A stretch of 64,000 nucleotides of DNA, from assembly GCA_030390025.1 (NCBI GenBank), contig JASTWF010000171.1:806001-870000 (forward strand), written 5' to 3'. The notes below the pieces were generated by a model that was not told the DNA's origin, searched no databases, and saw only the letters and a program-made list of their open reading frames with translations. Position 1 is the first letter of the stretch, and every line of letters begins with the position of its first letter. The position numbers were made by a program, and so were the translations under genes. Of the stretch, positions 15,601 to 58,599 are shown piece after piece. The DNA is from Squalus acanthias. Its lineage: Eukaryota.

Positions 15601-18600
15601 GTCCCCCCTCACTCACCCACTCTCAGTCCCCCCTCACTCACCCACTCTCAGTCCCCCCTCACTCACCCACTCTCAGTCCCCCCTCACTCACCCACTCTCA
15701 GTCCCCCCCTCACTCACCCACTCTCAGTCCCCCCTCACTCCCCCACTCTCAGTCCCCCCCTCACTCACCCACTCTCAGTCCCCCCTCACTCACCCACTCT
15801 CAGTCCCCCCTCACTCACCCACTCTCAGTCCCCCCCTCACTCACCCACTCTCAGTCCCCCCTCACTCACCCACTCTCAGTCCCCCCTCACTCACCCACTC
15901 TCAGTCCCCCCTCACTCACCCACTCTCAGTCCCCCCCTCACTCACCCACTCTCAGTCCCCCCTCACTCACCCACTCTCAGTCCCCCCTCACTCACCCACT
16001 CTCAGTCCCCCCTCACTCACCCACTCTCAGTTCCCGCTGCCCGTACTGCAGGTATTTCCTCAGCCATTCGATACACTCCTCCTCCAGGTAATTCTTCCAC
16101 CGCTGGTTGCCGACTGTGTCCTGGTCCCACCTGTTCTTGATGCTCTGTGCCCATGGGACCGGAGTGACCCACACCAGGTGATCCTTGTCGAAGCTGATGA
16201 GGTCTCGCCCGTCCCAGCCGAACTGGACAAACCCGCTCGTGGTCCCATCGTCCCTCAGGTCACAGCCAGTCATCACCTGGGACGTGTGGATCCCTGTCAA
16301 TCAAACACACACACAGCCAATCAGACCCAGTCCCACCGGGAGACCCGCCCACCGTCCCCCAGCTCACAGCTGGTCAGACACACCTGGGAAGCAGGCGGTA
16401 TTTAAAGGAACCCCCAACCCTGGTTCCAGATCTGTGTATTTAAAGACCCTCGGAACCCGAGCTATGAACTAAAAACACCGAAAACCAATCTGCATTTTAA
16501 AAGACTAAAGACATTGATGTCTAATAAAAGGAACCAAAGAACATGGTATATAAATTTGAAGGACCCCCCAATTCCTGATCTAAATATTTAAAGGGGCCTC
16601 CACCCCCACCCCTCGGTTCCTGATCTGTGTATTTAAAGGACTGATGTGAGGCCGCTCCCCATTGGTCGCTGCCCCTGGTCTGGGAGATGGAGTGCCTCTT
16701 TTCCCGGGGACCCTGGCTCCCTGAGCTCGCTCCACTCCACAGCTCGCTCCCCATTCCCACCCGGCCACCCTCAACCCAGGGAAAGAGCCCGACCGCGGCG
16801 GGAGGACGAGGACTCACCTCCCGACTGATTGGCCCGGATCATGAGCATCTGAATATTGGCCTTGTGATACACCTCCTGCTCCCGTGCGAGCTGAAATTTC
16901 CGCTGCCAGGACTCGGGCCCCTCACTCTCCACCATCCACTGCTCCCGCGGGATCAACTCCTTCCGATCACTGTCGTACATAACAAACTGGACCTCGTCCA
17001 CATATCCGACACCCACAAACTGTGGCAGACCGGGAATTGGAGTTATGGTGGTAAGGAAATACCGGAGAGAGTGAGAGCCTGAAACAGAGAGAGAGAGAGA
17101 GAGATATCAGGGCATGAACCCCAAAACACCAACCCCACACACACACACACAGTCATAAGGGTATGAACCCCAAAACACCAAACAAAAACGCACACGGACA
17201 TCAGGGCATAAACCTCCAAACACCAAACCCGCACACAGATAGACATCAGGGCATGAACCCCAAAACACCAACCCCCACACTCAGTGTGACATCTGGGCAT
17301 GAACCCCAAAACACCAAACACCCTCCCCCCACACACACACAGACATCAGGGCATGAACCCCAAAACACCAATCCCCCCACCCCCCCCCCCCGAAACCAAC
17401 AGACAGAGAGAGATAGACATTCAGGGCCCTCAACACTCCTGATGAGTCCCGTGTCCTGCAATCTCCATCCCCGATCCCCCATGGACCCTGATCAGGGACT
17501 CCGAGGCCCACCCATTCCTCCTCCAGACCCCCGCGACCCAACCCCATCCCTTACTGTAACCTGGAGCACTGACCTGCGCGGCCTCCTCCCCAGGTGCCAT
17601 CTCCAGTGCACTGGGGTCCGAGGCCAAGAATCCGCGGGCTTCTCAGACCTCAGTGTTTGAGCGCGGGTTGTAACACAGTGTTGGGGCGGGGGGCTCCCGA
17701 AGTTAACCCCAGACACTTGTATATCTCAGTTTGCTGACGACACTAAGTCAGGTGACCCAGTAAATTGTGTAGACGGGGGCAGCAAGTTGCAAAGGGTCAT
17801 TGAGAGAGTAAGTGAGCGGGCAAAACTGTGGCAGATGGACCTCAATGTGGGCAAGTGAGAGCTCATCCACTTTGGAGCTAAGAAAGATCAATCTGAATAT
17901 ATTCTACATGGTGGGAAACTCGGAGCTGTGGAGGAGCACATGGAGAAATCATTAAAAGCCAGTGGACAGGTACAATAAGGATTGGGAAAAGCTCATGGAA
18001 TGTTGGCCTTTATCTCGAGGGCTGGAATACAAGGGCTGGAAGTTCTGTTACAGCTGGACCGAGCTCTGGTTAGACCCCATCTGGAGTAACTGTGTTCAGT
18101 TCTGGGCATCGCACCTCAGGAAGGAGAAACTGGCCTTGGAGGGAATCCAGCGCAGATTCACCAGAGTGATACCGGGGCTTAGAGGGTTAAATTATGAGGA
18201 CAGGTTGCATAGACTAGGCTTGTATTCCCTTGAGTATAGAAGATTGAGGGGGAATCTAATTGAGGTGTTTAAAATGTTACAAGGATTTGATAGAATCAAT
18301 CTGGGGAAACTAGTGCCTCTGGTGGGTGAATCGAGAACGAGGGGACAGAATCTTAAAATTAGAGCCAGACCGCTCAGGAGCGGAATCAGGAAGCACTTTT
18401 ACACACAAAGGGTAGTGGAAATCTGGAACTGTCTGCCCCAAAAGGTGTGGATGCTGGGGCTCAACTGGAGCTTTCAGACCTAAGGTCGATGGATTTATGT
18501 TAGGTCAGGATATCAGGAATATGGAGCAAAGGCAGGGAAATGGAGTTAAGATACAAATCAACCAGGATCGAATTGAATGGAGGAACAGACTCGAGGGGCT

Positions 18601-32819: not shown

Positions 32820-33743
32820 CCAAATAAATTATCTTTCAAAATTCCCTATATTCTAGATTGGTCCCAGCGGATTTGAAGGTAGCAAATGTTACCTCGCTAT
32901 TCAAGAAAGAAGGGAGAGAGGAAACAGGGAACTGCAGGCCAGTTAGCCTGACATCAGTCATCGGGAAAATGCTGGAATCCATTATTAAGGAAGTGGTAAC
33001 AGGGCACTTAGACACTCATAATATGATTAGACAGAGTCAACATGGTTTTACATAAGAACATAAGACGTAGGAGCAGGAGTAGGTCATTTGGCCCCTCGAG
33101 CCTGCTCCGCCATTCAATAAGATCATGGCTAATCTTGGCCTCAACTCCACTTCCCTGCCCGCTCCCATAACCCTTGACTCCCTTACCATTCAAAAATCTG
33201 TCTATCTCCACCTTAAATATATTCAATGACCCAGCCTCCACAGCTCTCTGGGGAAGAGAATTCAAAAGATTCACGACCCTCAGAGAAGAAATTCCTCCTC
33301 ATTTCCATTTCAAATGGGTGCCCACTTATTCTGAAATTATGCCCCCTAATTCTAGATTCCCCCACGAGGGGAAACATTCTCTCTGCATCTACCCTGTCAA
33401 GCCTCTTCAGAATCTTATAAGTTTCAATAAGATCCCCTCTCATTCTTCTAAACTCCAATGAGTATAGGCCCAACCTGTTCAACCTTTCTTCATAAGACAA
33501 CCCTTTCATCTCCGGAATCAACCTCGTGAACATTCTCTGAACTGCCTCCAATGCAAGTAATATCCTTCCTTAAATAAGGAGACCAAAACTGTATGCAGTA
33601 CTCCAGGTGTGATCTCACCAATGCCCTGTACAGTTGTAACAGGACTTCCCTACTTGTATACTCAATTCCCTTTGCAATAAATGCCAACACTCCATTTGCC
33701 TTCCTAATTACTTGCTGTACCTGCATGGTAACTTTTTGTGATT
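32820..33743. mobile_element. Two CR1 fragments tail-to-tail (plus 32820-33050; minus 3' end 33051-33743)
   Basis: ANVT.LFKK / SQHGF; RALVRSHLEYC, RRMRGDLIE, cataagaacataaga tail. Confidence 0.85.
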
Positions 33744-34185
33744 TGATGTAAGTGGGAGCGGGCCCTGTGATATACAGGGTCGATGCTTCGTTGGGTACAG
33801 ATGACAGACTTCGAGTGATGGTTCAAAACGATCATTTAATTTTCACAGGCCCGGGGAGGGCTTGGGGAGAACCTTCTGAGACCCTTCTCAGATTCGACTC
33901 CCTGAGACCCTAGCGACATTCATACTTATACACAAAAATCATACCTTGCCCTAGGGGCGGGTGAGAAGCTATCAACGTCCCGATTAATCACATTTCTTTT
34001 ATCAGTTGGTTCTGGGACCAGATGGTTTGTTTAGTAACATGTTTTCTTAAGGTAACAGTTCCTGTTCTCGTAACGAGCTCAAGTTACTTTGAATGCACAT
34101 TTTTCCTTAACAAGCTCACAATTTTTTCCTTAACAAGCTCACGTCTAACACTTAATGATATTAATTATAAATTTTAATTACTTCA
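33744..34185 (-). mobile_element. 3' LTR (442 bp) preceded by polypurine tract AAAGGGGGAC (34186-34195)
   Basis: Termini TGAAGTAA...TTACATCA (7/8 inverted match); TATAAG at 33925-33930, ATTAAA at 33835-33840. Confidence 0.8.
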
Positions 34186-34318
34186 GTCCCCCTTTATGGC
34201 CCATTGGTCATATTGACCCAATAAGGCCAGTATTCTATAGCTTAAGATTGTTTCATATAAGCTCCCGTCGCCCTGGTGGTACCAACCCAGGGTGTCTGGT
34301 ACTCATAACCTGACAATC

Positions 34319-36193
34319 CTAAACACAGGCTGCATAGACAGTCCCCTTACGTTCTCCCCCAAGTTCATTGATGGTTAGCAACAGTTTTTCTTTCTCTTCC
34401 TCCTTTCTTACTCCTCTGGCTATTTTCTTCGCTAAGGTTTTCATTTTTCGTCCGTGACACTTGCTACAACAATCTATCAGAAGGTAAACTGATAGTGATA
34501 ATTGAACTATCACTAGCACGTGTGACATGATCCTGATCCATGGATGTACATTCACATTGAGTCCCCAGTTCCAGACCTTATTGCACCAAGGGGTTTCCGA
34601 TAAGGTTTTACTAATGTCTTTACTTTGTTGCTTTAAGTCTTTTTCTATTCTATTATAATGCTTTAAAATTTCTTTCGTTTCCCGCTGTAATTTCTTCCAA
34701 GCTTCTTGTTCCTTTAACTTAGGAATTGCCTTGGGCTCCGGTATGACATATGTTTTAATCATTCTATTAAGTCCCGTATTATTAAGTGACCAGGTTTTCT
34801 CTTTGTGTGGTCTTGGTGGGTGTATATACTCGTGTCCTATCTGTGTAGGCATCTTTGGGTAAAAACAAAAGTTTGGCTGGGGAATGGGACAAGTCAGGTC
34901 TTGGTATTCATATTTCTGTTCAGCTGTGGTGACACACAATGTCCCGTTGTTCTCTGGTGCTACCCTTGTTCGGCGTATCCCCCTTGGGTGTACCTCAAGG
35001 GTGCAATTGGTGGTTTTCGTAAATCCGCACTCGGCTGTGTCTCCCTCGGTGGGGGGGGGGGGGGGTGTGCACACCCATGTCCTTCCCTTGTGGTGGCACC
35101 CGTCCATTACCACCCCCCTTAAGGTTCCATTCTTCTGATTATCTTCATCCCTTTCCCAAATTGCCTTGGTAGGGACATCATGATATTTAACCCAACTCTC
35201 CCTTTGTACCTCTCCTATATTACCCACATCATATAGGGCCTGTCCTCCTTCAGGGAGTTGTGGGATGGCCAGTACAAAGCCAATCACCTTAGTCCATGGG
35301 GTCAGACAATTGCCTGCCCTGTGTACTTGTCCCATTTTACGCCCTTTGCATAGGCTTTTATTTGTGTCAATCCAAGGTTCCAGATCCTCATTAGTAATCC
35401 AATCAGGGATCTGTCCATTATTTATTTGCTTCATGTTATGCTGAGCATTCGACAATAGCCATGAGCCATACATGGCACATGCCAATTCCTTATGGGTTTG
35501 GTGTGATGCATTGCTGATCTGATTATTAATTGTTTTTGCATGGGGAGCTACTATCTCTTCCACCCCCAACAATTGTTTTGCCGTTTGTCCTACTGCCAGT
35601 GCCATTTGTGGGCTATTTTCAGTGGCTTGTTTTAGTAACTTCTTTATTTTTGCTTGTAGTTCTTCTACTCCTTCACTTACTCCTTCTATGTCAAAACTAT
35701 TAACTGTTGCTAACCCGGCCGCATACCCTGCTCCGGCCATTTCCAATGCTCTCCATTTCTTACGTCTCTGTAAGATAGATTTCCTTGTGGACCCTCTAAT
35801 TGTTTCATCCACAGGGAGTCCCATAATCGTTTGGTATAATCCTTACACATCGCGGGCATAGTAAAAGTACTCATATTGATAGCAAGTTTAATAATTCTAT
35901 GTGCTGCTTTAAAATACACCTCATCCTGTGTTTTCCTTATTACTAATCCCCCTCGTGCTCCCTTCTAGTACCCCCACGCCACATTTGAGATATATGGTTT
36001 TTCCCACAGTGACCGTCAGCGCTCCGCGCTCTCGATCGCAGCCCACGTCCGTCAAGCTTTTATGATATAGCCCAGTATTCGCCCTTCTGGCGATTAGTGC
36101 CGATTTCCTGGCGGTCATCTTAACCACTACCCCCTTGACAACGGCAATACTTATGTTCATCCCTAGGATCATGGCGAGAACGTTCCACCTCAT
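34319..36193 (-). pseudogene. Envelope/fusion glycoprotein gene; frameshifted N-part, open ~475-codon post-cleavage subunit
   Basis: Signal peptide MRWNVLAMILG..., basic site RRKKWR, fusion-peptide-like ALEMAGAGYAAGLATVN, heptad regions, Cys-rich block, Trp-rich pre-TM, TM IMSHVLVIVQLSLSVYLL; acceptor-like ttttgtaattacag just upstream. Confidence 0.8.
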
Positions 36194-37389
36194 TCTGGAC
36201 GTCCAATGTTCCTGTAATTACAAAAAGGGGGCTGGTCGTCACCAGCCAGTTAGAATTATTCCACTCTTATCGGTTCTATCAGTTCAAAATGCTGTACATC
36301 TGGTTCATTTCTTGGTCTGTGGCTCTGTCTCCAGACATACTTGAAGATGCAAATCACAACGTATAAGGTTAACATCACACACAGCCCTATCATTGATATA
36401 TGTATTTTAAGATTGAAAACATAGATCAAACGCTCTCACTTGGTCCAAGTTATTGACGTTTTTTAATTTATTATTTTAGAGGATCTTTTATTTTTTCAAA
36501 AGTAACCCAATATATAGTGCCCGAGTCCATTTTGTCATTTCAAAATTATCCCGAAATCCAAACAGCAGTACTGTTGAACTGACAGGTTTAGTCAATGTTC
36601 AATTTCATTTCTATCAATTTATCTTATCAATTCCAATTTCAGAAACAAGTGATTTCCAGGCTAGGTGGTTTACACAGTGTTTTAACATTAGAGACAGAAG
36701 TGCTGCAAATAGTTTACAAGGTAACTTCCATATAACAAAAGAAAGAAGAGAATCCATTGTGACTCTGCTTAAAGCCCAAGGGGTTAATCTATCAAATCAT
36801 AATTTTCCTTCTGGGAAATGTTAAATTAGAATTAAGAAACTTAAATTTAATAATGTCCAATATCTTTAAATTTCATTCAGCAATACTAAAGTTATTGCTT
36901 GATGAACTTAAACAGCTGTCAGTGGAAAGGGTTAACTCCTTTGCAGGTTTTTAAGAAGGTGGAGCGAAACATTGTCAGGCGCACGCAATTGCGTCACTTC
37001 ACGTAAATTAAAAAAAAAACTTTCCTGATCGAAAAAAGACAGTTGTGTTTTCACACTTTAACTAAACACGAACAGAACAGATAAAACAAAACAAACTAGT
37101 ACATGCCTGCAGAAAACATTAAATTACGTCATATTTCTTATTGTCCTTTCTTCAGATGCCTTTCCAAAATCCTGTAAAAACATTGAATATAACTGGAGAA
37201 AAATTAGTTTTTCACATTTAAACAAATCAAATCAAACTGCTTTGGAAGATTTCACCATAGCAACCACGACTCCAAGGTTAAATTTTAGACCGAAACTCAA
37301 TCTTTTGTTAAACAAACTTTTTGTTGTTCTTCTCAGTTTTACACACCAGCTTAACTTAAATTGTAGTTCAAGTTTTTTTTTCAATTCTT

Positions 37390-38170
37390 GGGGCACAAGC
37401 TATTGCAGCCACACATCGTGGCATTGCCTTCGCTACTGGATCCCTCTTGGTGGAGTAATACGCAACGGGTCTCTGTTTCCCTCCGTGATCTTGCATTACC
37501 ACGGCTGAATAACTCCCTTGGTCCTGGTCACAGTACAAGTGGAAGGGTCGGGTATGGTCTGGCAGTCCTAGGGCAGGGGCTGTTATTAATTCCTGTTTAA
37601 GGGCCCTATATGCTTCCTCCTGCTCTGTCTCCCCCCTTTAACTAACCGTTGAATCGGCTCTGCTTTCCCTGCAAAGTCTGATATAAAATTCCTGCAGTCG
37701 TTAAATAGTCCCATCACTTTCCTCACTCCCCAGACGGTCACTGGCCTTGGCATGTCTTTTCTGGCTGCCTTTTGTTCCTGCAGGAGTGCCTTTTACCCCT
37801 GGTTAATTTCGTGTCCTAGATACTTTACTTTGGACAGTCCAACCTGTGCCTTTTTGGGTTCAATTTAAAGCCAGCTTTCTTAAGTGTCTGGAGGGTGGCT
37901 AGTAATGCTCCCATGTGTCCTTTGGCATCCTCTGATGCAATCATTATGTCATCGACATATTAGAGTAGGGCACTCTGATACTTTGATAGGTTTAACTCGT
38001 CTAAGGCTTGACTCAGTACATGGTGGAATATATTTGGACTATTGTGGAACCCCTGCAGGACCCTGGTCCATGTATCCTGTCTATCCCTGACAGTAAAGGC
38101 GAATTTCCCTTGTGATTCCTCTGCCAATGGTATGGACCAGAACCCGTTCTGTATCCAAGACTGTACATAT
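37390..38170 (-). pseudogene. Retroviral pol fragment (RT core + tether/connection domain), disrupted
   Basis: NGFWSIPLAEESQGKFAFT...WTRVLQGFHNSP...YVDD (37948-37959)...AGFKLNP...VKYLG...GLFNDCRNFI; APALGLPD..RPFHLY...RPVAYYS...DPVA. Confidence 0.88.
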
Positions 38171-38741
38171 TTTAAAGTCTGGTTTCAGGCCATTAAATAT
38201 CTTATTCAATGCGGTCTACACAAATTTACACCAACCAGAATTTCACCGTGCACAATAAAAGTCTGGTTTTTAATAGGTTAATTAACCTCAATAACTCCAA
38301 TTCAATCCAGATTAATTGTTTTTAAACTAACCAGTATCGCTTGGAAAAGAAACCATAGCCACATTTACAAAGAAACAATTACCCATGCCCTGTAAACATT
38401 CAAATTCATTTTCTTCCAGGCACATTGGCAACTGTGACTTCAAGGCTGAAGCTTATCTTTTGTAAAACAATTAACAAACTTAAAACAACACACGCTTGTC
38501 CATCCTTCAAGACAAGTCTTCAAAGGGTTAAACAGCTTTTAGTGCTCTATACAAAAGAGTGGGTGGACCTAAAACAAAAATGACAGACACCTTTTTTTAA
38601 AGACAGACTTTCAGACAAAATAAATACTGTAACTTCTTAAACATTCACAGTCAGGTAAACTTTTAATCTTTTAACACACACTTTCACACATACTGAGATC
38701 CCAGCATTCCTTTTAAGATTCCTTTCACTCAACAAATCTTG

Positions 38742-40119
38742 GTTCCCTCATCCAAATCATTGATATATATTGTGAATAGCTGGGGCCCAAGCACTGATCC
38801 CTACGGCACCCCACTAGTCACCGCCTGCCACCCCGAAAAAGACCCATTTATTCCTACTCTGTTTCCTGTCTGTTAACCAATTTTCAATCCATGCCAGTAT
38901 ATTACCCCCAATCCCATGTGCTTTAATTTTGCACACTAACCTCTTATGTAGGACTTTATCAAAAGCCTTCTGAAAATCCAAATACACCATATCCACTGGT
39001 TCTCCCTTATCTATTCTACCAGTTACATCCTCAAAAAACTCCAGTAGGTTTGTCAAACACAATTTCCCTTTCATAAATCCATGTTGACTTTGTCTAATCC
39101 CGTTGATATTTTCTAAGTGTCCTGTCACATCCTTTATAATAGACTCTAGTATTTTCCCTACTACTGATGTTAGACTAACGGGTCTGTAGTTCCCTGTTTT
39201 CTCTCTACCTCCTTTTTTAAATAGTGGGGTTACATTTGCTACATTCCAATCCACGGGAACTGTTCCATAATCTATAGAATTTTGGAAGATGACAACCAAT
39301 GAATCCACTATTTCCATGGTTACCTCTTTTAGTACTCTGGGATGCAGATTATCAGGCCCTGGGGATTTATCGGCTTTCAGTCCCATTAATTTCTCCAGTG
39401 CTTTTTTTTATTAATACTAATTTCCTTTAATTCCTCCTTCTTACTAGACCATGGATTCCCTAGCATTTTTGGGAAGTTATTTGTTTCCTCTTCTGTGAAG
39501 ATAGAACCAAAGTATTTGTTTAATTGCTCTGCCATTTCCTTGTTCCACATTATAAATTCTCTCGTTTCTGACTGTAAGGGACCTACATTTGTCTTCACTA
39601 ATCTTTTTCTTTTTACATACTTGTAGAAGATTTTACAATCCGCTTTTATGTTCCTTGCAAGTTTACTCCCATACTCTATTTTTCCCCTCTTAATCAATCT
39701 CTTGGTCCTTTTTTGCTGAACTCTAAACTGCTCCCAATCCTCAGGCTTGCTACTTTTTCTGGCAACTTTATATGACTCCTCTTTGGATCTAATACTATCC
39801 TTAATTTATTTTGTTAGCCATGGTTGGGCCGCTTTTCCTTTTGTGTTTTTGCGCCAGAAAGGAATGTATAACTGTTTCAAATCATACATTCGTTCCTTAA
39901 ATGTTAGCCATTGCCTATCCGCCATCAAGCCTTTTAATGAAGCTTCCCCATCTATCATAGCCAACTCACTCCTCATACCTTCCTAGTTTGCTTTGTTTAG
40001 ATTTAGGACCCCAGCTTCGGATTGGACTTCTTCACTTTCCATATTAATGAAGAATTTTATCATGTCATGGTCACTCTTCCTTAAAGGACACCCGCACAAC
40101 AAGATTATTAACTAACCCT
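38742..40119 (-). mobile_element. CR1 ORF2 fragment
   Basis: KSPGPDNLHPRVLKE, NYRPVSLTS, YLDFQKAFDKV. Confidence 0.92.
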
Positions 40120-51500: not shown

Positions 51501-54469
51501 GTCCCTCGGCCCTTCGCAACCGGTCCCTCGGCCCTTAGCAACCGGTCCCTCGGCACTTAGCAACCGGTCCCTCGGCACTTAGCAACCGGTCCCATGGCCC
51601 TTTAACAACCGGTCCCTCGGCTCTTTAGCAACCGGTCCCTTGACTCTTAACAACCGGTCCTCGGTCCTTAGCAACCGGTCACTCAGCCCTTAGTAACCGG
51701 TCCCATGGCCCTTAGTAACCGGTCCCATGGCCCTTTAGCAACCGGTCCCTTGGCCCCTTAGCAACGGGTCCTCGGTCCTTAGAAACAAGTCCCTTGGCCC
51801 TTAGCAACCGATCCCATGGCCCTTTAGCAATCGGTCTTCAGTCCTTAGCAACCGCTCCCTTGGTCCTTAGCAACCGGTCCCTTGGTCCTTAGTAACCAGT
51901 CCCTCGGTTCTCAACAGTTACTTCATACCCGGGTGTCCCTGGAGATGGAGCACGCTGTGTCCACTGGTACACTTGAGCCCTTCCGTGACTGGTGGGCACC
52001 GGAGGGACTGGACTTCTTCATTACCACCCGGAATCGTATTTTAAGTTGATTTATTACATTTGATTTAAGTTAGTTTAAGTTACAGTATATTGGTTGTGCC
52101 CCTTTAAGAAGGGGGCAATTGCTTCTGTTTTATTGGTGATGGCATCAACCAATCAATGTTATCAGCCAATAGAAATTAGCAACCGGTCCTCGGTCCTTAG
52201 CAACAGGTCCTTTGGCCCTTCGCAACCGGTCTCATGGCCCTTTAGAAACCGGTCCTCGGCCCTTAGCAACCAGTCCCATGGCCCTTAGCAACCGGTCCCA
52301 TGGCAATTTGCAACCGGTCCCACGGTCCTTAGCAACCGGTCCCTCGGTCCTTAGCAACCGGTCCCTCGGTCCTTAGCAACCGGTCCCTCGGCCCTTCGCA
52401 ACCGGTCCCTCGGCCCTTAGCAACCGGTCCCTCGGCACTTAGCAACCGGTCCCTCGGCACTTAGCAACCGGTCCCATGGCCCTTTAACAACCGGTCCCTC
52501 GGCTCTTTAGCAACCGGTCCCTTGACTCTTAACAACCGGTCCTCGGTCCTTAGCAACCGGTCACTCAGCCCTTAGTAACCGGTCCCATGGCCCTTAGTAA
52601 CCGGTCCCATGGCCCTTTAGCAACCGGTCCCTTGGCCCCTTAGCAACGGGTCCTCGGTCCTTAGAAACAAGTCCCTTGGCCCTTAGCAACCGATCCCATG
52701 GCCCTTTAGCAATCGGTCTTCAGTCCTTAGCAACCGGTCCCTCGGTCCTTAGCAACTGGTCCCATGGTCCTTAGCAACCGGTCCCTCGGTCCTCAACAGT
52801 TACTTCATACCCGGGTGTCCCTGGAGATGGAACACGCGGTGTCCACTGGTACACTTGAGGTCTTCCGTGACTGGTGGGCACCGGAGGGACTGGACTTCTT
52901 CATTACCACCCGGAATCGTATTTTAAGTTGATTTATTACATTTGATTTAAGTTAGTTTAAGTTACAGCATATTGGGTGTGCCCCTTTAAGAAGGGGGCAC
53001 TTGCTTCTGTTTTATTGGTGATGGCATCAACCAATCAATGTTATCAACCAATAGGAATTGGCAACCGGTCCTCGGTCCTTAGCAACAGGTCCTTTGGCCC
53101 TTAGCAACCGGTCCCATGGCCCTTTAGCAACCGGTCCCATGGCCCTTCAGCAACAGGTCCCTCGGCCCTTTAGCAACCGGTTCTCAGTCCTTAGCAACAG
53201 GTCTCTTGGCCCTTTAGCAACCGCTCCCTTGGTCCTTAGCAACCGCTCCCTTGGTCCTTAGCAACCGCTCCCTTGGTCCTTAGCAACCGGTCCCTCGGTC
53301 CTCAACAGTTACTTCATACCCGGGTGTCCCTGGAGATGGAGCACGCTGTGTCCACTGGTACACTTGAGCCCTTCCATGACCGGTGGGCACAGGAGGGACT
53401 GGACTTCTTCATTACCACCCGGAATCGTATTTTAATTTGATTTAAGTTCGTTTAATTTGCCGTATATTGGTTGTGCCCCTTTAAGAAGGGGGCAATTGCT
53501 TCTGTTTTATTGGTGATGGCAGCAACCAATCAATGTTATCAACCAGTAGAAATTAGCAACCGGTCCTCGGTCCTTAGCAACAGGTCCTTTGGCCCTTCGC
53601 AACCGGTCTCATGGCCCTTTAGTAACCGGTCCTCGGTCCTCGGTCCTCAGCAACTGGTCCCTTGGTCCTTCACAACCGGTCCCACGGTCATTAGCAACCG
53701 GTCCCTCGGTCCTTAGTAACCTGTCCCTCGGTCCTTAGCAGCCGGTCCCTCGGTCCTTCGCAACCGATCCCTTGGCCCTTGGCAGCCGGTCCCTCGGCCC
53801 TTAGCAACCGGTCCCTCGACACTTAGCAACCGGTCCCACAGCCTTTAGCAACTGGTCCCTCGGCCCATAGCAACCGGTCCCTCAGCGCTTAGCAACCGGT
53901 GCCACACCCTCAGCAACCGGTGCCACGCCCTCAGCAACCGGTGCCACGCCCTCAGCAACCGGTGCCACGGCCCTTAGCAACCGGTGCCACGGCCCTTAGC
54001 AACCGGTTCCACGGCCCTTAGCAACCTGTCCCTTGGCCCTTAGCAACCGGTCCCATGGCATTTTGCAACCGGTCGCTCGGTCTTTAGCAACCGGTGCCAC
54101 GGCCCTTAGCAACCGGTCCTCGGTCCTTAGCAACAGGTCCTCGGCCCTTAGCAACCTGTCCCTTGGCCCTTAGCAACCGGTCCCATGGCATTTTGCAACC
54201 GGTCCCACGCCCCTTAGCAACCTGTCCCACGGCCCTTAGCCACCGGTGCTCAACCCTTAGCAACCGGTGGCACGGCCTTTAGCAACAGGTGCCACGGCCC
54301 TTAGTAACCGGTCCCTTGTCTCTCAGCCGCCGGTGCCCAGGCACTGAATTAATTTTTTTAATTTCTCTTGCCCAGGCTGGATGGGAAGTGGGACCCTGTT
54401 GGGTGAATTGTGTGTCGCTTCGGAGCTGAATCAATGACGGTTGGAGATCCTGCGACCAAGCACCGCCCC

Positions 54470-57400
54470 CCTCCCCTTCACCGCCCACAGCACTGACAGA
54501 CAGCGGGCTGTCCTCCTCCCCTTCACCGCCCACAGCACTGACAGACAGCAGGCTGTCCTCCTCCCCTTCACCGCCCACAGCACTGACAGACAGCGGGCTG
54601 TCCTCCTCCCCTTCACCGCCCACAACACTGACAGACAGCGGGCTGTCCTCCTCCCCTTCACCGCTCACAACACTGACTGAAAGCGGGCTGTCCTCCTCCC
54701 CTTCACCGCCCACAACACTGACAGACAGCGGGCTGTCCTCCTCCCCTTCACCGCCCACAGCACTGACAGACAGCGGGCTGTCCTCCTCCCCTTCACCATC
54801 CACAACACTGACTGACAGCGGGCTGTCCTCCTCCCCTTCACCATCCACAGCACTGACAGACAGCGGGCTGTCCTCCTCCCCTTCACCGCCCACAGCACTG
54901 ACAGACAGCGGGCTGTCCTCCTCCCCTTCACCGCCCACAGCACTGACTGACAGCGGGCTGTCCTCCTCCCCTTCACCGCCCACAGCACTGACTGAAAGCG
55001 GGCTGTCCTCCTCCCCTTCACCGCCCACAACACTGACAGACAGCGGGCTGTCCTCCTCCCCTTCACCGCCCACAACACTGACTGAAAGCGGGCTGTCCCC
55101 CTCCCCTTCACCGCCCACAACACTGACAGACAGCGGGCTGTCCCCCTCCCCTTCACCGCCCACAACACTGACAGACAGCGGGCTGTCCTCCTCCCCTTCA
55201 CCGCCCACAGCACTGACAGACAGCGGGCTGTCCTCCTCCCCTTCACCGCCCACAACACTGACAGACAGCGGGCTGTCCTCCTCCCCTTCACCGCCCACAA
55301 CACTGACAGACAGCGGGCTGTCCTCCTCCCCTTCACCGCCCACAGCACTGACAGACAGCGGGCTGTCCTCCTCCCCTTCACCGCCCACAACACTGACAGA
55401 CAGCGGGCTGTCCTCCTCCCCTTCACCACCCACAACACTGACAGACAGTGGGCTGTCCTCCTCCCCTTCACCGCCCACAACACTGACTGAAAGCGGGCTG
55501 TCCCCCTCCCCTTCACCGCCCACAGCACTGACAGACAGCGGGCTGTCCTCCTCCCCTTCACCGCCCACAACACTGACAGAAAGCGGGCTGTCCTCCTCCC
55601 CTTCACCGCCCACAACACTGACAGACAGCGGGCTTTCCTCCTCCCCTTCACCGCCCACAACACTGACTGAAAGCGGGCTTTCCTCCTCCCCTTCACCGCC
55701 CACAGCACTGACAGACAGCGGGCTGTCCTGCTCCCCTTCACCGCCCACAACACTGACTGAAAGCGGGCTGTCCTGCTCCCCTTCACCGCCCACAACACTG
55801 ACAGACAGCGGGCTGTCCTCCTCCCCTTCACCGCCCACAACACTGACAGACAGCGGGCTGTCCACCTCCCCTTCACCGCCCACAGCACTGACTGAAAGCG
55901 GGCTGTCCTCCTCCCCTTCACCGCCCACAGCACTGACTGAAAGCGGGCTGTCCTCCTCCCCTTCACCGCCCACAGCACTGACTGAAAGCGGGCTGTCCTT
56001 CTCCCCTTCACCGCCCACAACACTGACAGACAGCGGGCTTTCCTCCTCCCCTTCACCGCCCACAACACTGACAGACAGCGGGCTGTCCTCCTCCCCTTCA
56101 CCGCCCACAGCACTGACAGACAGCGGGCTGTCCTCCTCCCCTTCACCGCCCACAGCACTGACAGACAGCGGGCTGTCCTCCTCCCCTTCACCATCCACAA
56201 CACTGACAGACAGCGGGCTGTCCTCCTCCCCTTCACCGCCCACAACACTGACTGAAAGCGGGCTGTCCTCCTCCCCTTCACCGCTCACAGCACTGACAGA
56301 CAGCGGGCTGTCCTCCTCCCCTTCACCGCCCACAACACTGACAGACAGCGGGCTGTCCACCTCCCCTTCACCGCCCACAGCACTGACTGAAAGCGGGCTG
56401 TCCTCCTCCCCTTCACCGCCCACAGCACTGACTGAAAGCGGGCTGTCCTCCTCCCCTTCACCGCCCACAGCACTGACTGAAAGCGGGCTGTCCTCCTCCC
56501 CTTCACCGCCCACAGCACTGACAGACAGCGGGATGTCCTCCTCCCCTTCACCATCCACAACACTGACAGACAGCGGGCTATCCTCCTCCCCTTCACCGCC
56601 CACAACACTGACTGAAAGCGGGCTGTCCTCCTCCCCTTCACCACCCACAGCACTGACAGACAGCGGGCTGTCCTCCTCCCCTTCACCGCCCACAGCACTG
56701 ACTGAAAGCGGGCTTTCCTCCTCCCCTTCACCGCCCACAGCACTGACAGACAGCGGGCTTTCCTCCTCCCCTTCACCGCCCACAACACTGACTGAAAGCG
56801 GGCTGTCCTCCTCCCCTTCACCGCCCACAGCACTGACAGACAGCGGGCTGTCCTCCTCCCCTTCACCGCCCACAACACTGACAGACAGCGGGCTGTCCTC
56901 CTCCCCTTCACCGCCCACAACACTGACTGACAGCGGGCTGTCCTCCTCCCCTTCACCGCCCACAACACTGACAGACAGCGGGCTGTCCTCCTCCCCTTCA
57001 CCGCCCACAACACTGACTGACAGCGGGCTGTCCTCCTCCCCTTCACCGCCCACAGCACTGACAGACAGCGGGCTGTCCTCCTCCCCTTCACCGCCCACAA
57101 CACTGACTGAAAGCGGGCTGTCCTCCTCCCCTTCACCGCCCACAACACTGACTGACAGCGGGCTGTCCTCCTCCCCTTCACCGCCCACAACACTGACTGA
57201 AAGCGGGCTGTCCTCCTCCCCTTCACCGCCCACAACACTGACTGACAGCGGGCTGTCCTCCTCCCCTTCACCGCCCACAACACTGACTGACAGCGGGCTG
57301 TCCTCCTCCCCTTCACCGCCCACAGCACTGACTGAAAGCGGGCTGTCCTCCTCCCCTTCACCGCCCACAACACTGACTGAAAGCGGGCTGTCCTCCTCCC

Positions 57401-58481
57401 CTTCACCGCCCACAGCACTGACAGACAGCGGGCTGTCCTCCTCCCCTTCACCGCCCACAGCACTGACAGACAGCGGGCTGTCCTCCTCCCCTTCACCGCC
57501 CACAACACTGACAGACAGCGGGCTGTCCTCCTCCCCTTCACCGCCCACAACACTGACAGACAGCGGGCTGTCCCCCTCCCCTTCACCACCCACAACACTG
57601 ACAGACAGCGGGCTGTCCTCCTCCCCTTCACCGCCCACAGCACTGACAGACAGCGGGCTTTCCTCCTCCCCTTCACCGCCCACAGCACTGACAGACAGCG
57701 GGCTGTCCTCCTCCCCTTCACCGCCCACAGCACTGACAGACAGCGGGCTGTCCTCCTCCCCTTCACCGCCCACAACACTGACAGACAGCGGGCTGTCCTC
57801 CTCCCCTTCACCGCTCACAACACTGACAGACAGCGGGCTGTCCTCCTCCCCTTCACCGCACACAGCACTGACAGACAGCGGGCTGTCCTCCTCCCCTTCA
57901 CCGCCCACAACACTGACAGACAGCGGGCTGTCCTCCTCCCCTTCACCGCCCACAGCACTGACAGACAGCGGGCTGTCCTCCTCCCCTTCACCGCCCACAA
58001 CACTGACAGACAGCGGGCTGTCCTTCTCCCCTTCACCGCCCACAGCACTGACTGAAAGCGGGCTGTCCTCCTCCCCTTCACCGCCCACAACACTGACAGA
58101 CAGCGGGCTGTCCTCCTCCCCTTCACCGCCCACAACACTGACTGACAGCGGGCTTTCCTCCTCCCCTTCACCGCCCACAACACTGACAGACAGCGGGCTG
58201 TCCTCCTCCCCTTCACCGCCCACAACACTGACAGACAGCGGGCTGTCCTCCTCCCCTTCACCGCCCACAACACTGACAGACAGCGGGCTGTCCTCCTCCC
58301 CTTCACCGCCCACAACACTGACTGAAAGCGGGCTGTCCTCCTCCCCTTCACCGCCCACAGCACTGACAGACAGCGGGCTTTCCTCCTCCCCTTCACCGCT
58401 CACAGCACTGACAGACAGCGGGCTGTCCTTCTCCCCTTCACCGCCCACAACACTGACAGACAGCGGGCTGTCCTTCTCCAG
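54470..58481. repeat. 45-bp minisatellite (cactgacagacagcgggctgtcctcctccccttcaccgcccaca[g/a])
   Basis: About 89 highly homogeneous copies with no visible indels. Confidence 0.97.
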
Positions 58482-58599
58482 TCTTGTCGAGAAATCCCAT
58501 CACAAACAGCAGCCAGACCAGGTAGGGTCGGCAGTTTCCCTTCCCTGAAGCACCTCAGTTAGTTTTTACAGCAAGCATTCACAATGATGATAGAATAGT

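Follow-up and report, generated by a model that had tools for sequence, protein, structure and literature searches.

A dead endogenous retrovirus fragment of probably mosaic make-up upstream of an MHC class I gene in Squalus acanthias, and the relationships of its predicted F-type envelope

Introduction

The described elements closest to the locus presented here belong to snakehead retrovirus (SnRV) and its clade (Huo), the lokiretroviruses, the foamy viruses and Ovex1 of galliform birds. Members of clade Huo have been reported in every major lineage of vertebrates (Xu et al. 2018, PMC6001957), and SnRV-related endogenous retroviruses (ERVs) have been reported from the elephant shark (CmiERV lineage I; Han 2015, PMC4422223). 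Lokiretroviruses were found in none of the six cartilaginous-fish genomes screened by Wang and Han 2021 (PMC7947760), and four scenarios for the origin of env are left open there. The same authors later favoured independent acquisitions of env because similarity between loki and canonical Envs was undetectable (Wang and Han 2022, PMC9040795). Foamy Env has since been shown to be F-like (PMC11468914), and the authors of Ovex1 expressed doubt about the envelope identity of its ORF3 (PMC2717909). Here we describe a shark element in which these lines of evidence meet.

Results

The element lies in a window of 64,000 nucleotides, the whole stretch of DNA analysed (Squalus acanthias, contig JASTWF010000171.1, positions 806,001 to 870,000). 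A first-pass annotation, made from the letters alone, had described it as a loki-like or otherwise basal retrovirus. Its parts and surroundings are as follows, in window coordinates.

33744..34185, minus strand: 3' LTR, 442 bp, TG..CA, directly behind the purine tract
34186..34195, minus strand: polypurine tract, seen in the sequence; the same tract precedes the 3' LTRs of other copies
34319..35842, minus strand: env, TM subunit; 507 codons open between two stops, predicted F-like fold
35843..36405, minus strand: N-terminal env remnants with frameshifts and stops, shorter than in related families
36406..37401, minus strand: AT-rich non-coding block 2, partly common to family-B derivatives
37402..37625, minus strand: tether (degenerate RNase H) remnant, close to neither donor family (54-60% amino acid identity)
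37630..38200, minus strand: RT palm/thumb remnant with frameshifts and stops, 91-95% nucleotide identity to family A
38201..38741, minus strand: AT-rich non-coding block 1, common to copies derived from families A, B and D
38741, minus strand: 5' break of the element, where the alignment to other copies ends
38742..39805, minus strand: host LINE, upstream part; about 250 bp of the LINE is absent at the junction with the element
33050..33743, minus strand: host LINE, downstream part, flanking the element on the LTR side
16810-17079, minus strand: MHC class I alpha1 exon (context only)
16028-16294, minus strand: MHC class I alpha2 exon (context only)

The surrounding LINE is one that we take to be of the CR1 type. 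All parts named in the first-pass annotation were recovered: a pol relic with RT motifs, a tether-type domain, env, polypurine tract and LTR, with the MHC class I exons in the same orientation 16.7 kb further downstream. Its 5' limit at 38170 fell short, the element being alignable to copies with two LTRs as far as 38741 at 95-96% identity. NGFWSIPL, WTRVLQGFHNSP and YVDD share a single minus-strand frame with a stop codon directly before YVDD, GLFN.CRNFI lies in a second frame and the tether piece in a third, so that the pol piece consists of three frames with stops, flanked by the two AT-rich blocks. Pfam nevertheless recognized RVT_1 in the RT piece (E 3.5e-19, the stop read as X) and RT_RNaseH_2 in the tether (E 2.3e-16), in which no DAS motif was found. 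RNase H, integrase, gag and the 5' LTR are absent from the window copy. No RNA data set was listed as containing the element; contigs of four runs cover it, a coverage that cannot show transcription of this copy. The locus is an ordinary dead ERV fragment.

For placement of the RT, references were drawn from 25 gamma-/foamy-type isolates, lenti/delta-type, Gypsy and caulimovirus contigs, two loki-type pol loci and 63 database homologues. Rows were labelled from their motifs and genome size rather than from record names. As SnRV reference we used an isolate of 10,688 nt that agrees with the row for SnRV in the alignment of PMC7947760. The careful tree retained 52 of 74 rows after 22 near-duplicates were dropped; it includes two loki RTs, is without labelled Odin, CmiFLERV, ZFERV-2 and WDSV rows, and has a window row filling 43% of the columns. 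In this tree, a check of the kind proposed in the first-pass annotation, the window RT joined family A (100/95), the shark set including a Heterodontus protein was recovered at 99/94 and a minnow-containing set at 98/94, and the shark-minnow set fell inside the canonical retroviruses (98/97) with loki outside. The grouping with loki that had been named beforehand was rejected by an AU test on 35 rows (p 0.0025). The window RT also lay outside the gamma/epsilon-like, lenti/delta and mammalian foamy clades (99/96, 100/100) of a tree in which WDSV is not a row. By identity, the RT piece is closest to SnRV (50%, E 3e-27), with the next references at 32-37%. SnRV, foamy, Ovex1-like and shark rows form an open polytomy in the careful tree; SnRV is not sister in the 35-row AU analysis, and two FastTree runs supported the link at 0.86 and 0.37. 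The RT lies among canonical retroviruses, likely in or near the SnRV group (clade Huo).

The window RT does not carry the loki signature of the rows in PMC7947760 and agrees with the SnRV row there. The loki signature pattern had 0 matches in this genome, and a loki RT query reached at most 41% identity in it, with no loki RT found; six of the eight top loci from that query carry an SnRV-type motif and two have no readable motif. Among viral contigs, the loki pattern again had 0 matches and the pol query yielded no confirmed locus, while two of 11 metagenome matches are loki RTs. The integrase of family B has a loki integrase as its best BLAST match; the integrase tree is poorly resolved and subject to long-branch warnings, and integrase is absent from the window copy. 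Two other assignments were rejected. Ty3/Gypsy (Metaviridae) does not fit an RT outside the Gypsy clade whose relatives have a tether plus a second RNase H, and an Odin retrotransposon does not fit an element with env, which Odin is without, although no Odin RT was among the tree rows.

Comparison with other copies indicated that the pieces have different sources. In family A the LTR and primer site are distinct and the order is gag-pro-RT-tether-RNase H-integrase-env; in family B the LTR type, gag and env are those of the window element. At all nine A-type loci the window RT segment matches family A with 91-95% identity, and it is 76% identical to family B across one third of its length, whereas the window env is 87-94% identical to family B and about 33% (amino acid) to family A. 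A complete 6.6-kb copy (L031), with a target duplication and LTRs 0.7% apart, has the RT segment alone in common with two family-A proviruses (94-95%) and matches family B at 81-94% in LTR, gag and env. The tether is 54-60% identical in amino acids to both families. A source family for it was not found among the 150 matches scored, which comprise about 70 close ones followed by a drop to 59-68%. Block 1, of about 540 bp, recurs in defective copies descended from families A, B and D, and block 2 is 86-87% identical to family-B derivatives in two of four sub-blocks. The relatives have a zinc-knuckle (CCHC) Gag, a tether plus a second RNase H (seen in relatives only) and integrase, and gag-stop-pol in frame as in SnRV. 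On these comparisons the family is a non-autonomous mosaic, with RT from family A, LTR, start of gag and env from family B and the tether from a third source. The assumption that pol and env represent one lineage, on which the loki-like label depended, did not survive this comparison.

Template switching is a route of retroviral recombination, and the mosaic was likely assembled through such switching between co-packaged genomes. Because the family has no usable pol and yet shows fresh LTR pairs and target duplications, we infer that it was mobilized in trans. Its spread would have relied on complementation, with priming by tRNA-Ser and Gag/Pol from intact relatives, by a mechanism of the kind described in PMC8922424. 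Consistent with this picture, the primer-binding site (PBS) of the two-LTR copies is complementary to host tRNA-Ser(AGA), copies with paired LTRs carry 5-bp target duplications, and the genome contains young relatives whose LTRs are almost identical and whose gag/pol frames are long and open.

The genome holds at least 150 matches to the RT piece, 95 to env and 42 to the LTR, the last among the 40 scored of 193 candidates. All four LTR pairs of the window's type are 0.7-2.4% apart, corresponding to 1.5-5.5 My at a mammalian rate or 15-55 My at the rate, ten times lower, that Han 2015 (PMC4422223) assumed. Three further copies are 98-100% identical to the window copy, LINE flanks included, and each has an MHC class I gene 17-37 kb downstream of it. 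One of these sits on a different contig and may represent the other haplotype. Since the near-identical copies, flanks included, each sit upstream of MHC class I, the insertion appears to have been duplicated with that gene. The alignment shows that the window copy entered a LINE and that its 5' LTR and gag were afterwards lost along with about 250 bp of LINE sequence. It was then probably duplicated together with the adjoining MHC class I gene, as the shared flanks suggest. All 35 named homologues among the 36 listed for the alpha2 exon come from sharks, rays or skates. Among the 30 best env loci, the TM frame is unbroken in two, the window copy and one duplicate; env is broken in the remaining two duplicates.

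Taken by itself, the window Env had no sequence match in Pfam (Fusion_gly included), the PDB sequences or a word-index homologue search, nor by tblastn against SnRV, loki, foamy and gamma loci. No canonical furin motif, CX6CC or ISD was found in the window env. A gamma-type Env was rejected, CX6CC and an immunosuppressive domain not being found and the profile match to gamma being 2.4%. A profile built from 16 shark Env frames, on the other hand, retrieved 73 relatives from a search space of 1.84 billion proteins. Twelve of the 20 clusters looked up were named and come from sharks, frogs, cyprinids and chicken, the chicken protein (LOC422926; library match E 1.6e-6) being the 873-aa ORF3 of Ovex1. 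Two further matches are loki-type, one of them with Pfam Fusion_gly (E 4.7e-6). In profile-profile comparisons by HHalign, with the loki and Ovex1 rows removed from the query, the shark Env matched loki Env (98.4%, E 5e-15), Ovex1 (98.0%, E 2e-13), SnRV (96.4%, E 1e-9) and foamy Env (64%, E 7e-5), the last being the weakest of the positive matches. A smaller Env profile gave loki 16.6 and 13.8 bits and SnRV 2.0, and loki alone stood clearly above the best of 360 shuffled controls (2.6 bits). A language-model search related the window Env to Fusion_gly, Baculo_F, Gypsy env and CoV S2 clusters (0.91-0.94, with a recognition value below threshold) and the SnRV TM region to the same families (0.89-0.90).

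The structure model of the Env (pLDDT 69, pTM 0.40; input alignment including loki rows) led to a compatible result. Foldseek against the PDB ranked foamy Env first (E 1.7e-8) for this predicted model, followed by the F proteins of hMPV, RSV, measles virus and henipavirus, and among predicted viral structures the model also matched two walleye epsilonretrovirus Envs (E 6e-7, 3e-6). With TM-scores of 0.2-0.33, low as expected of a long-helix monomer, the model speaks for a fold class and not for close kinship. The window Env is accordingly predicted to have a fusion fold of the measles/RSV (paramyxovirus-F) type. In the Env tree the shark Envs group by themselves (100/99) and the loki Envs likewise (100/100), with weak deep nodes (73/90) and long branches. 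Sister lineages within the same RT clade differ in this respect: two have a gamma-type Env (Pfam TLV_coat, with CX6CC in one) and one is without env.

Discussion

Our results are best explained by a dead, 5'-truncated mosaic shark ERV with a canonical RT and a predicted F-type Env, duplicated in linkage with MHC class I, a reading to which we give a probability of about 0.85. The first-pass annotation was right about a basal retrovirus in a shark that has a tether and whose Env is F-like, but not about its identity as a lokiretrovirus. A true lokiretrovirus that widens the loki host range now seems extremely improbable. The dual RNase H of the relatives, an Env homologous to loki Env with loki as the highest profile score, and the loki integrase as best BLAST match would all fit it, but the tree and AU test keep the RT out of loki, the loki motif is missing from the genome with loki RT queries at 41% or below, and the Env tree separates the two groups. 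Moreover, an F-like Env is not diagnostic of loki, because SnRV, Ovex1 and foamy viruses have one too. An alternative is that a Huo-type canonical backbone acquired a lokiretroviral env, and perhaps integrase, by recombination, so that the F-like Env is borrowed rather than ancestral; this is more probable but still unlikely. Its appeal is that loki gives the top Env profile similarity and that the gamma-type Envs of sister lineages show env to be swapped within this RT clade. In the library search, however, the Envs of frogs, cyprinids and birds (Ovex1) come nearer to the shark Envs than those of loki do, the shark Envs are not nested in loki in the Env tree, and the F-like Envs of SnRV, Ovex1, foamy viruses and, by fold, walleye epsilonretroviruses would require several captures.

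Two further possibilities concern a foamy origin and a host function. NGFW/QGF.NSP/YVDD motifs are present in foamy RT and foamy Env is the best PDB fold match, as might be expected of a shark foamy-like ERV (clade Tu). This origin is nonetheless improbable: the RT lies outside the mammalian foamy clade (100/100; fish foamy-like rows were compared by eye only), the Gag has a CCHC knuckle, gag and pol share one frame, as they do not in the foamy references, and foamy Env is the weakest positive profile match. The CCHC knuckle is absent from spumavirus Gag according to PMC2717909. Host co-option of the window env within the MHC region is very improbable as well. The TM frame is unbroken in the window copy and one duplicate (two of 30 loci) and env adjoins MHC class I, but there is no 5' LTR, the N-terminal env is broken, a canonical furin motif is absent and the other two duplicates are broken.

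The locus yields no shark lokiretrovirus, and its value lies in the envelope link. The shark Env family acts as a bridge, its profile being deep enough to join loki Env with those of SnRV, Ovex1 and foamy viruses. At the level of sequence profiles, the resulting detectable Env homology contradicts the premise of independent loki and canonical env origins in PMC9040795. With the premise of undetectable similarity gone, the origin of retroviral env becomes testable with sequence and structure trees. An F-like Env does not define loki, and our data suggest for the F-type Env a greater age and a wider distribution among retroviruses than the literature supposes. The profile links from loki Env to SnRV, Ovex1 and a wide anamniote family favour one ancestral F-type env that was later replaced. 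We give roughly even odds to the broader proposal that an F-type fusogen was the ancestral retroviral Env across loki, foamy viruses, SnRV, Ovex1, walleye epsilonretroviruses and a large, unannotated shark/frog/cyprinid family, with gamma-type Envs as repeated replacements. If true, retroviruses and lokiretroviruses would share one env acquisition, with a loss in Odin. Ancient env transfers between lineages may also have taken place, because env swaps occur in the same RT clade, where F-like, gamma-type and env-less lineages stand side by side. For Ovex1 ORF3, a chicken ovary gene, an F-type fusogen ancestry is likely. We found no paper linking SnRV/Huo Env to F proteins or loki Env in the openly searchable literature.

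Among known systems, the lokiretroviruses resemble the shark family in the tether plus second RNase H of its relatives, a trait of all retroviruses, and in an F-like Env, related to Mononegavirales F and of detectable homology, with a short surface subunit. They differ in that the shark RT lies outside loki and is without the loki RT signature, and its Env is not nested in theirs. Foamy viruses share the F-type ('class Ib') fusion fold (PMC11468914) and give the best PDB match, whereas the shark family has a CCHC Gag, in-frame gag-pol, a tRNA-Ser PBS and an RT outside the foamy clade. Ovex1 has a basal SnRV/class III-type pol and an 873-aa ORF3 homologous to the shark Env; it is a single-copy conserved gene without LTRs (PMC2717909), while the shark family is multi-copy and decaying. 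SnRV and clade Huo are alike in RT motifs, best RT identity (50%), in-frame gag-pol and the zinc-knuckle Gag of the relatives, and the SnRV TM subunit is homologous and F-like (HHalign 96%). The shark family departs from SnRV in its PBS, in being a defective mosaic and in the length of Env (729 aa in an unbroken relative versus 1134 in SnRV), and trees give little or no support to a sister relationship between the two. Because SnRV-related ERVs have already been reported from the elephant shark, and the RT is not loki, the host-range extension proposed in the first-pass annotation falls away, and the element is likely a further shark ERV in or near the SnRV group.

Repeated and shared sequence blocks

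Two repeat-related features of the window are as follows.

38201-38741: AT-rich non-coding block that three ERV families, otherwise distant from one another, have in common in their defective derivatives
54330-58500: tandem array in which a 45-bp unit recurs about 90 times, the copies being about 95% identical

A genome search with the AT-rich block returned 2218 first-look candidates, and the block could be a cis-acting module favouring packaging or export. Another defective derivative, with the same LTR as the window element, was observed on contig G000:C2 (loci L034/L035); it occurs there as near-identical repeats spaced about 79 kb apart, and in it the start of gag is fused in frame to the integrase core in a 561-codon open frame. 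Sequences resembling tRNA-Ser form a large tandem cluster on contig G000:C889, where the 3' end is matched exactly at more than 60 positions.

Related lineages and carriers of the F-like env

Young lineages in the RT clade of the window element (L420-L423, L426) have LTRs that are 99.5-100% alike and long open frames; one type lacks env, and two carry a gamma-type env. Dozens of pol matches score equally, which suggests a recent expansion. A related F-like env was found in a pol-deleted family (L124, L127, L144, L145); in one copy the env frame is unbroken over 729 codons. The F-like env is also present in basal ERV families that are more distant (L149 on contig G000:C3301, L424, L425), the RT of which falls outside the A/B set of shark families.

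Profile comparison showed that chicken LOC422926 (P0122), which is Ovex1 ORF3, is homologous to the shark F-like Env family; ORF3 is conserved across galliform birds, and its expression is in the ovary (PMC2717909). Among the predicted structures in BFVD, the F-like Env model matches the Env proteins of two walleye viruses, dermal sarcoma virus and epidermal hyperplasia virus, as well as an abalone herpesvirus protein.
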